IMG/VR virus record: IMGVR_UViG_2740892230_000025
DNA: 4,368 nucleotides
Direction: 5' to 3' (one strand)
Origin: a virus
Lineage: Duplodnaviria > Heunggongvirae > Uroviricota > Caudoviricetes
Shown here: one piece after another, positions 410 to 4,368 of the stretch
Layout: the number at the start of each line of letters is the position of its first letter
How positions within the stretch are numbered: the stretch's first letter is position 1
Program-made: the position numbers and the translations under genes
The notes under the pieces: generated by a model
Databases searched by the model: none
What the model was told of the DNA's origin: nothing
Seen by the model: the letters and a program-made list of their open reading frames with translations, nothing else

Positions 410-615
410 AAACATACCGTGTGACGCTTTCCGTGACCCGGGAGGAGGCCCGGCATCTGGAAGCGTTCCTGGCAGAGCACGGAGGCTGGAAGGCATTTTT
501 GTGGAAGCCACCCTATGCATACCGGCAGATAAAGGTGACCTGTGCCGGGTGGTCTGCGCGGGTCGGGATGTTGCGCGTTGAGTTCAGCGCGGAGTTTAAG
601 CAGGTGGTGAACTGA
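410..615 (+). CDS. M: Tail tip assembly protein M, C-terminal two-thirds (5' partial); stop TGA 613-615
   Basis: TYRVTLSVTREEARHLEAFLAEHGGWKAFLWKPPYAYRQIKVTCAGWSARVGMLRVEFSAEFKQVVN* matches lambda gpM (..TYSVTLSV..EHGGWKSFLW..RVEFSAEFEQVVN) from memory. Confidence 0.85.
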
Positions 616-632
616 TGCAGGATATTCACGAA
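615..632 (+). CDS. L: Tail tip protein L, first 6 codons (MQDIHE), truncated by N gap
   Basis: ATG 615-617 overlaps the M stop (ATGA); lambda gpL begins MQDIRQE. Confidence 0.75.
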
Positions 633-642
633 NNNNNNNNNN
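633..642. other. Assembly or stitching gap (N x10)
   Basis: Run of 10 N. Confidence 0.95.
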
Positions 643-902
643 ACTCTGGGAAATCGACCTGACGGTACAGGGCGGTGAGCGGTATTTTTTCTGTAATGAG
701 CTGAATGAAAAAGGGGAGGCGGTCACCTGGCAGGGGCGGAAGTACCAGGCATACCCGATTGACGGCAGTGGCTTTGAGATGAACGGGAAGGGCAGCAGTG
801 CCCGCCCGTCGCTGACGGTGTCGAATCTGTTTGGTCTGGTCACCGGGATGGCGGAGGACCTGCAGAGCCTGGTGGGGGCCACGGTGGTCCGCCGCCGGGT
901 GT
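643..902 (+). CDS. L: Tail tip protein L, internal fragment (copy A), partial at both ends
   Basis: Frame from 644: LWEIDLTVQGGERYFFCNELNEKGEAVTWQGRKYQAYPIDGSGFEMNGKGSSARPSLTVSNLFGLVTGMAEDLQSLVGATVVRRRV, close to lambda gpL residues ~23-110 from memory. Confidence 0.85.
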
Positions 903-912
903 NNNNNNNNNN
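903..912. other. Assembly or stitching gap (N x10)
   Basis: Run of 10 N. Confidence 0.95.
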
Positions 913-1390
913 CCGGTCACCTGGCAGGGGCGGCAATATCAGGCATACCCGATTGACGGCAGCGGTTTTGAGATGAGCGGGAAGGGCAGCAGTGCCAGAC
1001 CGTCGCTGACGGTGTCCAATCTGTTCGGTCTGGTCACCGGGATGGCGGAAGACCTGCAGAGTCTGGTGGGGGCCACGGTGGTCCGCCGCCGGGTGTATGC
1101 CCGTTTTCTGGATGCGGTGAATTTTGTGGCGGGCAATCCGGAAGCGGACCCGGAGCAGGAGCTGAGCGACCGCTGGGTGGTGGAGCAGATGTCAGAGCTG
1201 ACGGCCATGACAGCCTCGTTTGTGCTGGCAACACCGACGGAGACGGACGGGGCGCTGTTTCCTGGTCGCATCATGCTGGCGAACACCTGTATGTGGGATT
1301 ACCGGGGAGATGAATGCGGGTATAACGGTCCTGCGGTGGCGGATGAGTTCGACAACCCCACCACGGATATCCGTAAGGACAGATGCAGCA
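913..1390 (+). CDS. L: Tail tip protein L, internal fragment (copy B; re-covers 719-902 and extends to the Cys-rich C-terminal domain)
   Basis: PVTWQGRQYQAYPIDGSGFEMSGKGSS...YARFLDAVNFVAGNPEADPEQE...TETDGALFPGRIMLANTCMWDYRGDECGYNGPAVADEFDNPTTDIRKDRCS; matches lambda gpL from memory. Confidence 0.9.
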
Positions 1391-1786: not shown

Positions 1787-2408
1787 ATGACACAGACAGA
1801 ATCAGTGATTCTGGCACACACCCGGCGGTGTGTGCCTGCGGAGTCGTGCGGCTTCGTGGTGAGAACGCCGGAGGGGGAGCGGTATCTGCCGTGTGTGAAT
1901 ATTTCCGCAGAGCCGGAGGCGTATTTTCGTATCGCACCGGAAGACTGGCTGCGGGCAGAGATGCAGGGGGAGATTGTGGCGCTGGTTCACAGTCATCCCG
2001 GTGGTCTGCCCTGGCTGAGCGAGGCCGACCGGCGGCTGCAGATAAAAAGTGCACTGTCCTGGTGGCTGGTCTGCCGGGGGGACATTCATAAATTCCGCTG
2101 TGTGCCACATCTGACAGGACGGCTCTTTGAGCACGGGGTGACGGACTGTTACATGCTGTTCCGGGATGCATACCATCTGGCGGGAATTGATATGCCGGAT
2201 TTTGAGCGTGAGGATGACTGGTGGCGCAATGGTCAGAACCTGTACCTGGACAATATGGAGGCGACTGGTTTTTACAGGATTTCCCTGCCTTCCGCACAGC
2301 CTGGCGATATCCTGCTGTGCTGCTTTGGCGCATCGGTGGCCAATCATGCCGCCATATACTGCGGCAACGGTGAACTGCTTCACCATCTGCCTGAACAACT
2401 GAGTAAAC
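1787..2408 (+). CDS. K: Tail tip assembly protein K (copy 2), N-terminus through both peptidase domains; 3' end truncated by N gap
   Basis: MTQTESVILAHTRRCVPAESCGFVVRTPEGERYLPCVNISAEPEAYF...EIVALVHSHPGGLPWLSEADRR...GVTDCYMLFRDAYH...NHAAIYCGNGELLHHLPEQLSK; near-identical to lambda gpK from memory. Confidence 0.9.
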
Positions 2409-3381: not shown

Positions 3382-3391
3382 NNNNNNNNNN
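3382..3391. other. Assembly or stitching gap (N x10)
   Basis: Run of 10 N. Confidence 0.95.
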
Positions 3392-3623
3392 TGGTGTGGC
3401 ACAGATGCTGGCCCCGAAGCCAAAAACACCGGAATACAGGGCAACGGATAACGGTAAACAGAACACGTACTTTTCGTCGCTGGATAACATGATTGCCCAG
3501 GGGAACCCGATGCCGGTGCCTTACGGTGAAATGCTGGTTGGTTCACGGCGAATCTCCCAGGACATCAGTACCCGTGATGAAGGCGGTGGCGGAAAGGTCG
3601 TGGTTATCGGGCGGCAGGGGTAA
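3392..3623 (+). CDS. I: Tail assembly protein I, C-terminal fragment (re-covers ~3297-3381); stop TAA 3621-3623
   Basis: GVAQMLAPKPKTPEYRATDNGKQNTYFSSLDNMIAQGNPMPVPYGEMLVGSRRISQDISTRDEGGGGKVVVIGRQG*; matches the lambda gpI C-terminus (..QNTYFSSLDNMVAQGN..YGEM.VGSR..SQEIST.DEG.GG.VVVIGR) from memory. Confidence 0.9.
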
Positions 3624-3630
3624 AAAGAAT

Positions 3631-3654
3631 AAAAAAATCCCGCAGAGTTGCGGG
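3631..3654 (-). terminator. Putative intrinsic terminator oriented for the minus strand (GC stem 3639-3644/3649-3654 followed on minus RNA by U7 = plus-strand A-run 3631-3637)
   Basis: Plus strand reads aaaaaaa-t-cccgca-gagt-tgcggg; the reverse complement is hairpin + TTTTTTT. Stem conserved in the second copy at 3971-4002. Confidence 0.4.
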
Positions 3655-3758
3655 GACAGACAAAGATTAACGTTAAGGAGTTATTTTTGTTTCTGGTGCT
3701 CGGGCAAAAAAAACATTAACGCAGAGAAATTATTAGCACCACAGTCAGTTTGTGAAAA

Positions 3759-3774
3759 TGTGAAGATATTCAGA
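3759..3774. promoter_or_regulatory. Imperfect dyad TGTGA-N6-TCAGA (CRP-half-site-like), conserved in both spacer copies
   Basis: TGTGAagatatTCAGA at 3759-3774; TGTGAagaaatTCAGA at 4102-4117. Resembles the CRP consensus TGTGA-N6-TCACA with one mismatch; weak. Confidence 0.2.
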
Positions 3775-3793
3775 AGTTTTATTCAGTCATGAT

Positions 3794-3826
3794 ACAGGCA
3801 TCCTCCGGGATGCCTGTTGTTTTTGT
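3794..3826 (+). terminator. Putative intrinsic terminator or attenuator upstream of J (10-bp stem 3794-3803/3808-3817, loop TCCG, then TGTTTTTGT)
   Basis: ACAGGCATCC-TCCG-GGATGCCTGT followed by a T-rich run; same element at 4137-4167 with a compensatory T:A to C:G change. Confidence 0.5.
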
Positions 3827-3858
3827 GCGTAACAGTTATCACAGTAAAGGGTGAGACA

Positions 3859-3928
3859 ATGGGCAAAGGTGGCGGCAAGGCGCACACGCCGGTAGAGGCA
3901 AAGGACAATCTTAAGTCCACGCAGATGA
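3859..3928 (+). CDS. J: Tail tip host-specificity / central tail fibre protein J, first 23 codons (copy 1, ATG start), truncated by N gap
   Basis: MGKGGGKAHTPVEAKDNLKSTQM matches the lambda gpJ N-terminus (MGKGSSKGHTPREAKDNLKSTQL) from memory. Confidence 0.85.
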
Positions 3929-3938
3929 NNNNNNNNNN
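3929..3938. other. Assembly or stitching gap (N x10)
   Basis: Run of 10 N. Confidence 0.95.
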
Positions 3939-3965
3939 GTGGTGGTTATCGGGCGGCAGGGGTAA
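3939..3965 (+). CDS. I: Tail assembly protein I, last 8 codons + stop (VVVIGRQG*), second copy
   Basis: Duplicates 3597-3623 with one synonymous change (gtc to gtg). Confidence 0.7.
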   Translation: MVVIGRQG

Positions 3966-3970
3966 AGCAT

Positions 3971-4002
3971 AAAAAAATCCCGCAGTGTATGGAGGCTGCG
4001 GG
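3971..4002 (-). terminator. Putative minus-oriented intrinsic terminator, copy 2 (7-bp stem 3979-3985/3996-4002, 10-nt loop, adjoining A7 on plus = U7 on minus)
   Basis: aaaaaaa-t-cccgcag-tgtatggagg-ctgcggg; stem retained relative to copy 1 while the loop differs by an indel. Confidence 0.4.
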
Positions 4003-4136
4003 AACAGAAAATGAAGATTAACCACAGGGAGTTTTGTTTTTATTGGCCCGAAAAAACTGTAACGCCCGGGAATGATATCTGCCACGGGGGCGTACAGAAA
4101 ATGTGAAGAAATTCAGAAATTTTATTCCGTCATGAC

Positions 4137-4167
4137 ACAGGCACCCTCCGGGGTGCCTGTCGTTTTT
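4137..4167 (+). terminator. Putative intrinsic terminator or attenuator upstream of J, copy 2 (stem 4137-4146/4151-4160, loop TCCG, then CGTTTTT)
   Basis: ACAGGCACCC-TCCG-GGGTGCCTGT + T5; paired positions 4144/4153 are C:G where copy 1 has T:A. Confidence 0.5.
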
Positions 4168-4195
4168 GGGGCATAAACAGATTCAGACATCAGAC

Positions 4196-4206
4196 AGGAG
4201 AGGGGG
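4196..4206 (+). promoter_or_regulatory. Shine-Dalgarno (AGGAGAGGGGG) for J copy 2
   Basis: Purine-rich AGGAGA ending about 10 nt upstream of GTG 4212. Confidence 0.5.
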
Positions 4207-4211
4207 ACAGA

Positions 4212-4368
4212 GTGGGTAAAGGTGGCGGCAAGGCGCACACGCCGGTTGAGGCAAAGGACAATCTTAAGTCCACGCAGATGATGAGCGTGATTGATGCCAT
4301 CGGTGAGGGACCGGTGGAAGGTCCGGTGAAGGGGCTGCAGAGTATTCTGGTGAACAAAACCCCGCTGA
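4212..4368 (+). CDS. J: Tail tip host-specificity / central tail fibre protein J, N-terminal 52 codons (copy 2, GTG start), 3' partial at window end
   Basis: (V/M)GKGGGKAHTPVEAKDNLKSTQMMSVIDAIGEGPVEGPVKGLQSILVNKTPL matches lambda gpJ (MGKGSSKGHTPREAKDNLKSTQLLSVIDAISEGPIEGPVDGLKSVLLNSTPVL) from memory. Confidence 0.85.
   Translation, partial: MGKGGGKAHTPVEAKDNLKSTQMMSVIDAIGEGPVEGPVKGLQSILVNKTPL

Follow-up and report, generated by a model that had tools for sequence, protein, structure and literature searches.

Lambdoid late operons are transcribed by Q-modified RNA polymerase, which reads through terminators, and the products of the M, L, K, I and J genes are all low-copy tail-tip proteins. 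The hairpin described here, which lies just upstream of J, resembles the Rho-independent terminators of E. coli and its phages in having a GC-rich stem of 9-10 bp, a UNCG-type tetraloop and 5-6 U residues 3' of the stem, on the strand of the operon; it differs from them in being located inside a Q-antiterminated late operon, right before a gene, and not at the operon end. A further parallel is offered by tR'/6S RNA and by StxS, a short RNA that Stx phages produce when transcription terminates downstream of PR' (PMC7547250), since in these cases a late-operon terminator is passed only by Q-modified polymerase and can define a short RNA. The tR'/StxS site, however, has a mapped promoter, a mapped 3' end and a function that has been shown, whereas the I-J hairpin is a predicted element.

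Two further systems are relevant to the same junction. Tree et al. (2014) described the Hfq-bound sRNAs EcOnc22/23/24 in the Sakai prophages Sp15, Sp14 and Sp11, which appear as an RNA of ~85 nt on northern blots and are destabilised without Hfq. The same sRNA is known as PasB in EPEC E2348/69, where it is 83 nt long (NC_011601, 1466343 to 1466261, minus strand; probe AATCCCGCAGTGATCGCGGAGCT). In addition, morons are autonomous promoter-gene-terminator insertions in lambdoid late operons (Juhala et al. 2000, as cited in PMC4104026). In this work we show that the I-J spacer of Stx phages and related prophages holds both a PasB-type gene and, on the opposite strand, a terminator-like hairpin that has counterparts in lambda and other phages.

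Results

Two I-J spacers with a terminator-like hairpin

The window, which is the whole stretch of 4,368 bases analysed here, is a mosaic in which short fragments are linked by N10 runs (Table 1). Nearly all of the fragments are present twice, as two alleles of one lambdoid tail-gene region in which the end of H is followed by M, L, K, I and the start of J; the doubled segments correspond either to two related prophages or to two assembly branches. Since the window is an N10-joined chain and not one locus, open reading frames that cross N runs are artefacts. The I-J spacer measures 235 nt in copy A (3624-3858, with the I stop ending at 3623 and the J ATG at 3859) and 246 nt in copy B (3966-4211, with the I stop ending at 3965 and the J GTG at 4212), as compared to 60 nt in lambda (I ends at 15444, J starts at 15505). 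The lengths given in a preliminary description of this DNA, including ~60 nt for lambda, were thus correct. Megablast searches with the spacer identified matches in ~1,270 of the 5,426 complete E. coli genomes searched (435 of these with the full length) and in ~140 records of Stx-converting and related phages; the I-J spacer carries no annotation in any of these matching records.

Both spacers contain a hairpin on the plus strand, and the perfect 10-bp stems, TCCG loop, T-rich tail and coordinates previously reported for the two copies all match the sequence (Table 1). Within their 24 nt, the two hairpins differ solely at T3801/A3810 versus C4144/G4153; these positions pair with each other, and the matched change noted earlier is therefore real, with pairing kept as U-A in one copy and C-G in the other. 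The stems hold 6-7 G-C pairs, and the 4-nt loop, of the UNCG type, is closed by a C-G pair. On the plus strand 5-6 U residues follow, the tracts directly after the stems being UGUUUUUG and CGUUUUUG, and on the minus strand there is no U-run 3' of either stem. The hairpins are separated from the start of J by 41 nt (copy A) and 51 nt (copy B) of variable sequence, and the alignment columns G66 and T67-T70 (GUUUU) are invariant in 21 distinct homologues.

A consensus scan scored each hairpin as a plus-strand terminator-like site (10 pairs, 4-nt loop); three such sites are present in the region, compared to 0.9 expected, the third being on the minus strand (3654-3639). Folding of 45-nt plus-strand RNA segments yielded -20.2 kcal/mol for copy A and -25.6 kcal/mol for copy B (z ~ -4), and none of 200 dinucleotide shuffles folded as well. 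Stem A alone accounts for -17.9 kcal/mol, as predicted on the reverse-strand fold. The locus thus displays both structural hallmarks of an intrinsic terminator, namely a GC-rich stem with a short loop and a U-rich tract immediately 3' of it. The earlier terminator reading is borne out as far as this plus-strand hairpin and U-run are concerned, while termination itself is predicted from them.

No Rfam 15 family covers the hairpin at E <= 1, and the only match was a sub-threshold one to Hrs1 at 3630-3692; a description of an I-J terminator was likewise not found in the literature. A small open reading frame that runs through the hairpin (20 aa from ATG 3789; 14 aa from ATG 4132) was considered and rejected, since it has no Shine-Dalgarno sequence, its ATG is missing in locus L011 and it is absent from lambda.

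Table 1. Positions of the features of the window discussed in the text (numbering of the whole 4,368-base stretch)
Feature	Copy	Position	Strand	Evidence
Hairpin, 10-bp stem ACAGGCATCC/GGATGCCTGT, loop UCCG	A	3794..3817	+	sequence, consensus scan, folding
T-run TGTTTTTGT, 3' of hairpin	A	3818..3826	+	sequence, consensus scan
Hairpin, 10-bp stem ACAGGCACCC/GGGTGCCTGT, loop UCCG	B	4137..4160	+	sequence, consensus scan, folding
T-run CGTTTTTGG, 3' of hairpin	B	4161..4169	+	sequence, consensus scan
PasB/EcOnc22-24-like sRNA gene	A	3631..3722	-	alignment to E2348/69 PasB and Sakai EcOnc22
PasB terminator: stem; U-run	A	3639-3654; 3631-3638	-	minus-strand terminator scan
PasB predicted sigma-70 promoter, TTCACA-16-AATAAT	A	3729..3756	-	consensus scan
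PasB-like sRNA gene	B	3971..4065	-	alignment
PasB terminator: stem; U-run	B	3979-4002; 3971-3978	-	read from sequence
-10-like TATCAT of PasB	B	4077-4072	-	read from sequence
Motif AAATGTGAAGAnnTTCAGAAnTTTT (25 nt), just upstream of PasB -35	A; B	3757..3781; 4100-4124	-	recurs at leftward sRNA modules
Gene I (tail assembly), 3' end	A; B (fragment)	3392..3623; 3940-3965	+	homologous records annotated 'tail assembly protein'
Gene J, 5' end (GTG start in copy B)	A; B	3859..3929; 4212-4368	+	gpJ annotation in matching genomes
N10 runs		241-250, 400-409, 633-642, 903-912, 1391-1400, 1756-1765, 2409-2418, 2963-2972, 3382-3391, 3930-3939		

The spacer is enlarged by an antisense sRNA gene

The spacer had been viewed as indel-rich non-coding sequence, but the published sRNA gene PasB/EcOnc22-24 sits inside it, on the strand opposite to the tail genes, and explains its length; the extra ~175 nt with respect to lambda correspond to this inserted antisense gene with its own promoter and terminator. 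Both window copies share with PasB and EcOnc22 the core AACUCCUUAACGUUAAUCUUCA and the terminator CCCGCAG...CUGCGGGAUUUUUUU (minus strand), and the terminator stems of the two copies differ by a 9-nt indel. The start of copy A was inferred from the -10 element, and the equivalent of the published 5' end lies at ~3706. At the position of the PasB promoter, E2348/69 carries TTCACA-16-TATAAT (11/12 matches), and the NC_011601 record confirms that PasB is located between the I and J genes. This E2348/69 promoter (locus L004, 793-766, minus strand; NC_011601 ~1466358) predicts a PasB start ~15 nt upstream of the published 1466343; the primary transcript may be ~98 nt long and then be processed, or the published end, which derives from coverage, may be approximate.

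In order to place the Sakai sRNAs, the coordinates of Table S2 of Tree et al. (2014), which were given for an older version of the Sakai sequence and at 2.23 Mb are ~128-135 nt below those of NC_002695.2, were calibrated via HnrS (EcOnc10). HnrS was itself placed by its described features (CUUCU anti-RBS, complement to the mazF 3' end, and terminator), at positions 2172-2237 (plus strand) of locus L001, in Sakai Sp12. Once the offset is corrected, the peak of EcOnc22 maps to the half of the Sp15 I-J spacer nearer to I and to the opposite strand from the tail genes. In agreement with this, the northern probe GGGAGAGAACGATGAAGATTAAC... is tail-gene-strand sequence, so that the RNA detected is antisense to the tail genes. 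Two other assignments were discarded: EcOnc22 maps onto the hairpin with uncorrected Sakai coordinates, which is ruled out by the offset calibration and by the strand and position of the northern probe, and HnrS (EcOnc10-12) is located between Rz and terminase, and not between I and J.

PasB and the hairpin thus occupy the same I-J spacer, and PasB accounts for the spacer length, for the hairpin at 3639-3654 and for the larger part of the conserved sequence on the left side of the hairpin studied here. The latter does not belong to PasB: it lies on the tail-gene strand, at least 72 nt to the right of the PasB start and beyond the PasB promoter, and the two do not overlap. The suggestion that the hairpin forms the 3' end of a small RNA is not supported by these data, since the documented sRNA of the spacer is encoded on the opposite strand and ends at the 3639-3654 hairpin.

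A second sRNA, on the plus strand, is an unlikely explanation for the hairpin. Such an RNA (~55-85 nt) would arise in the PasB promoter region, for example by divergent transcription from the symmetric PasB -10, and would end at the hairpin, creating a back-to-back two-sRNA locus. Indeed, a highly conserved, AU-rich stretch of 40 nt leads up to the U-tailed, terminator-like hairpin, as in Hfq-dependent sRNAs; the PasB -10 region, when read on the plus strand, displays nAT[T/G]AT hexamers in 4/4 sequences compared, and the Hfq-CRAC screen, which dropped sense sites <100 bp from a coding region, would have missed such an RNA. However, a crude consensus scan identified no plus-strand sigma-70-like promoter in the window spacers or in E2348/69, and the conserved upstream block is mostly the leftward sRNA module, which recurs without the hairpin. 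Moreover, lambda carries a hairpin at this junction with 22 nt between it and the I stop, which leaves no room for an sRNA gene. Among the EPEC RIL-seq entries listed there are no chimeras at the hairpin coordinates, although this is weak evidence, and among the entries listed in published screens, Hfq-bound RNA at the spacer is found on the opposite strand only.

A hairpin upstream of J in lambda and other phages

The I-J spacer of lambda contains AAACCGCC-UGCG-GGCGGUUU-UGUCAUUUAUGGAG (DNA: GTGAAACCGCC-TGCG-GGCGGTTT-TGTCATTTATGGAGCGTGAGGAATG), followed by the J ribosome-binding site. This hairpin and its T-run (~15467-15495), which are unannotated in NC_001416, make up nearly the whole 60-nt spacer together with that ribosome-binding site; 22 nt separate the stem from the I stop, and ~22 nt lie between the hairpin and the J start. 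The same place is occupied by AAGCCACC-UUCG-GGUGGUUU in a prophage of Edwardsiella piscicida with a 57%-identical J (as DNA, AAGCCACC-TTCG-GGTGGTTT-TTCTGTTTCTGGAG; from a protein-anchored scan of genome contigs, at least one locus). Loci fetched by J-protein similarity provided further variants, AGCCGCC/GGCGGCU and GACCUCC/GGAGGUU, which share the context TTT[A/C]TGGAG. When pairs are counted from the loop outward, pair 3 is G-C, A-U or U-A and pair 6 is A-U, G-C or G.U; these compensatory changes were read from the sequences and their individual folds, because unequal loops misregister two classes in the MAFFT alignment.

Plus-strand hairpins followed by a T-run are also observed in other gaps of the lambda late region (L417), namely E/FI (7163-7180), J/lom (18920-18935) and lom/stf (19612-19633). 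The loop of the site that follows capsid gene E is C(UUCG)G.

We then compared 58 distinct 150-nt regions upstream of J, from loci that were anchored on the J protein and hence unselected for a hairpin. A plus-strand terminator-like site is present in 55 of these related, non-independent sequences, which comprise ~6 hairpin classes with unrelated stems, as opposed to 9% of dinucleotide shuffles; minus-strand sites are found in just 3/58. The count tested sub-stems, since greedy G.U extension otherwise consumes the T-run, and the lambda I-J hairpin is then missed. The three regions without any site include deletions of an alternative hairpin and a spacer that carries sodC, indicating that some prophages can dispense with the element.

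A covariance model of the lambda-type I-J hairpin (R1, five training sequences) was employed in a 70-kb search with filters off, and ranked both window hairpins directly behind its own training sequences. Scores were 20.9 bits for 4139-4179 (E ~8e-4) and 15.1 bits for 3796-3825 (E ~0.065); these values are modest and only roughly calibrated, and part of the score would accrue to any GC hairpin that has a U-tail. In the R1 alignment, the UCCG loop and a GUCGUUU tail are common to the window hairpins and many of the lambda-type variants.

Both window copies carry a plus-strand hairpin with a T-run, before the J ribosome-binding site, at the same junction and on the same strand as in lambda. At a minimum, then, the window hairpin corresponds in position to the I-J hairpin of lambda, and the two are probably homologous. 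The two differ in stem sequence, with four pairs changed on both sides if they are homologous, and in placement, since the lambda hairpin is ~22 nt from J, whereas those of the window are 41-51 nt away and are parted from I by PasB. The hairpin is thus an ordinary terminator-like element common to lambda-type phages, lambda included. Given that lambda, Edwardsiella-type and other prophages carry a hairpin and T-run with different, compensated stems, a structure at the I-J position is evidently maintained, and the hairpin is probably selected. Selection had previously been argued from the window itself; it is the compensated stems of the relatives that support a maintained structure, and the window pair alone is thin.

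These comparisons also bear on what kind of element the hairpin could be. A DNA-level role, as a palindrome bound by a dimeric protein or as a recombination site, is highly improbable: the 10+10 inverted repeat is perfect, but it has a conserved T-run on one side only and tolerates G.U-type variants, and the unrelated stems found at the same position in relatives are incompatible with a sequence-specific site. A role in mRNA stability, processing or translation, as a 3' exonuclease barrier for M-L-K-I or an insulator of the J ribosome-binding site, is rather unlikely, although it has several points in its favour; the U-run would then be incidental, or would act as an S1/ribosome standby site. 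In lambda and Edwardsiella the hairpin and U-run lie ~10-12 nt before the GGAG of J, UUU[A/C]UGGAG is conserved, lambda has a like hairpin just 3' of the highly expressed capsid gene E, and late transcription is Q-antiterminated, so that a terminator would be bypassed. In the window, however, the hairpin is 41-51 nt from J with variable sequence between, and coupling to the ribosome-binding site is thus not conserved. In addition, all classes have a U-run 3' of the stem, a feature that a barrier to exonucleases would not require.

Covariation within the window's hairpin type

The fetched loci together provided 102 instances of the window hairpin type, which reduce to 9 hairpin haplotypes and 26 distinct local sequences; pair statistics were calculated on 21 distinct sequences. 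In these, 98.1% of cells are paired, as compared to 33-49% for slid registers. Six of the ten pairs never vary, two vary on one side as G.U wobbles, and one further pair departs solely by an unpaired C.A, in the E2348 type, so that one-sided changes are mostly wobbles. The single pair that changes on both sides is T3801/A3810, which occurs in C-G, U-A, U.G and C.A forms, and the observed covariation score was reached by 11/500 column shuffles.

The distribution of this pair was followed in the 5,426 complete E. coli genomes. The C-G haplotype is present at 2,479 places (699 genomes) and U-A at 833 (532 genomes), while U.G and the unpaired C.A are found at 71 (67 genomes) and 73 places (42 genomes), respectively. 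U.G and C.A are recombinants of the two alleles, with a crossover in the loop, and flanking markers switch accordingly. All hairpin variants fold at -16.6 kcal/mol or better, the C.A recombinant attaining this value through a register slip. Since C.A is as frequent as U.G, there is no visible selection against the mismatch. The compensatory change thus represents one event between two linked alleles, with a chance probability that we estimate at roughly a few percent, and is suggestive. As an argument for selection, the two-sided change stands, but the two window copies alone are weak evidence, given that the recombinants are equally common; the survey of homologous spacers similarly reveals a stem that is kept almost throughout, yet with an uncompensated form in circulation. 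A metagenome scan anchored on the left flank recovered ~17 true copies among 120 stretches, the rest being mostly chance matches, and revealed no new stem variants.

It could be argued from these results that the hairpin has no selected function, and is a palindrome that hitch-hikes with a mosaic J-upstream module, the compensatory difference reflecting alleles linked by chance. There is a single covarying pair, its four combinations are all represented, and the mismatched recombinant is no rarer than the wobble one; the block is 93% identical, leaving little time for purifying selection to show, and the element is wholly absent in some prophages. We nevertheless consider this improbable, since lambda, Edwardsiella-type and other phages carry independent hairpin sequences, with compensatory changes, at this position, and since sites are ~six-fold enriched over shuffles, on the plus strand only.

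The I/J junction as an insertion site

The 25-nt motif AAATGTGAAGAnnTTCAGAAnTTTT precedes every leftward sRNA module, including modules that have no copy of the studied hairpin behind them, and is doubled in tandem-sRNA spacers (L006 9949/10128, L061 4151/4330, L081 7423/7602, L047 4543/5014). Possible roles are those of an UP element or of a site bound by a regulator of PasB-type promoters. Its recurrence without the hairpin indicates that the conserved block 3757-3781 belongs to the PasB module, and not to the hairpin.

A scan of viral contigs for junction variants, performed with the anchor AAATGTGAAGANNTTCAGAA, which lies outside the hairpin and proved to be a motif adjoining the -35 of every leftward sRNA module on its upstream side, revealed three arrangements to the right of the anchor: (a) the studied hairpin, then J; (b) another GC-rich hairpin, AAACCCCGGTATC-TGCT-GATACCGGGGTTTCTCTTT, then J; and (c) a second leftward sRNA module in tandem, followed by type (a). 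The type (b) hairpin, which is stronger than the studied one (-29.8 kcal/mol), is found in L128 and ~60 other J-anchored loci, ~95-120 nt upstream of J; L144 and L102 have lost it by deletion, and L138 retains a truncated form. It is preceded by an A-run and followed by a T-run, and so looks bidirectional. In L032, at ~4750-4850, an IS3-family insertion (transposase start MNKKTKRTFTPEF) splits a type (b) module to the right of the PasB promoter motif. In L151, where I ends at 349 and J starts at 1201, an antisense sodC-like gene (Cu,Zn-superoxide dismutase; ~540-1100, minus strand) with its own minus-strand terminator adjoins a remnant of the PasB terminator, and there is no plus-strand hairpin before J.

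The presence of these alternative modules (PasB, tandem sRNAs, sodC, IS) points to the I/J junction as a moron insertion site. It takes up antisense PasB, tandem sRNA modules or antisense sodC in different prophages. The studied hairpin, in contrast, is not the moron's own terminator; it is older than the insertion and has the opposite orientation.

Discussion

On balance, we favour the view that the hairpin is a conserved I/J element of terminator type, in a spacer enlarged by PasB, that stops polymerase lacking the Q modification. It would be the version found in Stx phages and EHEC prophages of a conserved sense-strand element right upstream of J, and the antisense PasB gene, including its promoter and terminator, would have been inserted between the I stop and this element. 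Polymerase without the Q modification would stop at the hairpin, be it from leakage in the lysogen or from rightward transcription that arises in or crosses the PasB locus, and J and the genes beyond it would be kept silent outside the lytic cycle. In lytic growth, Q-modified polymerase would pass, and on the read-through transcripts the hairpin could block 3' exonucleases and thus guard the M-L-K-I message. That transcription does end at the hairpin, and the biological role that this would serve, we infer from the features described above. Term-seq data for Sakai have been published (cited in PMC13502914 and PMC7547250).

The preliminary description had also proposed that the element sets the dosage of J relative to M-L-K-I. 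We found no support for this role, since the five products are all low-copy proteins and Q-modified polymerase should read through; given such read-through, the hairpin also has no obvious function in the lytic cycle.

It is also conceivable, but quite unlikely, that the hairpin gates the I/J junction together with PasB, with a rightward anti-PasB RNA that, unless made by Q-modified polymerase, ends at the hairpin and either titrates PasB or is cleaved through it. Rightward transcripts that cross the spacer, those of the late operon included, do contain the exact complement of PasB. If this were true, the anti-PasB RNA of lysogens or of early induction would represent either the I message's 3' end or divergent transcription from the symmetric PasB promoter, and expression of J, the tail fibre, would be coupled to a virulence-linked host sRNA network.

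The PasB sRNA has already been published, while the I-J hairpin is unannotated, and our observations do not overturn the current understanding of this region. They do put the junction of Stx and lambdoid prophages in order, as I, an antisense PasB gene, a terminator-like hairpin and J, and indicate that the insertion of PasB spared an older element that is also present in lambda. The lambdoid late operon thus carries terminator-like hairpins in its few intergenic gaps. If the I-J hairpin terminates unmodified polymerase, as we favour, it would be a fail-safe that silences the receptor-binding protein J in lysogens, and would provide a natural boundary for moron insertions.
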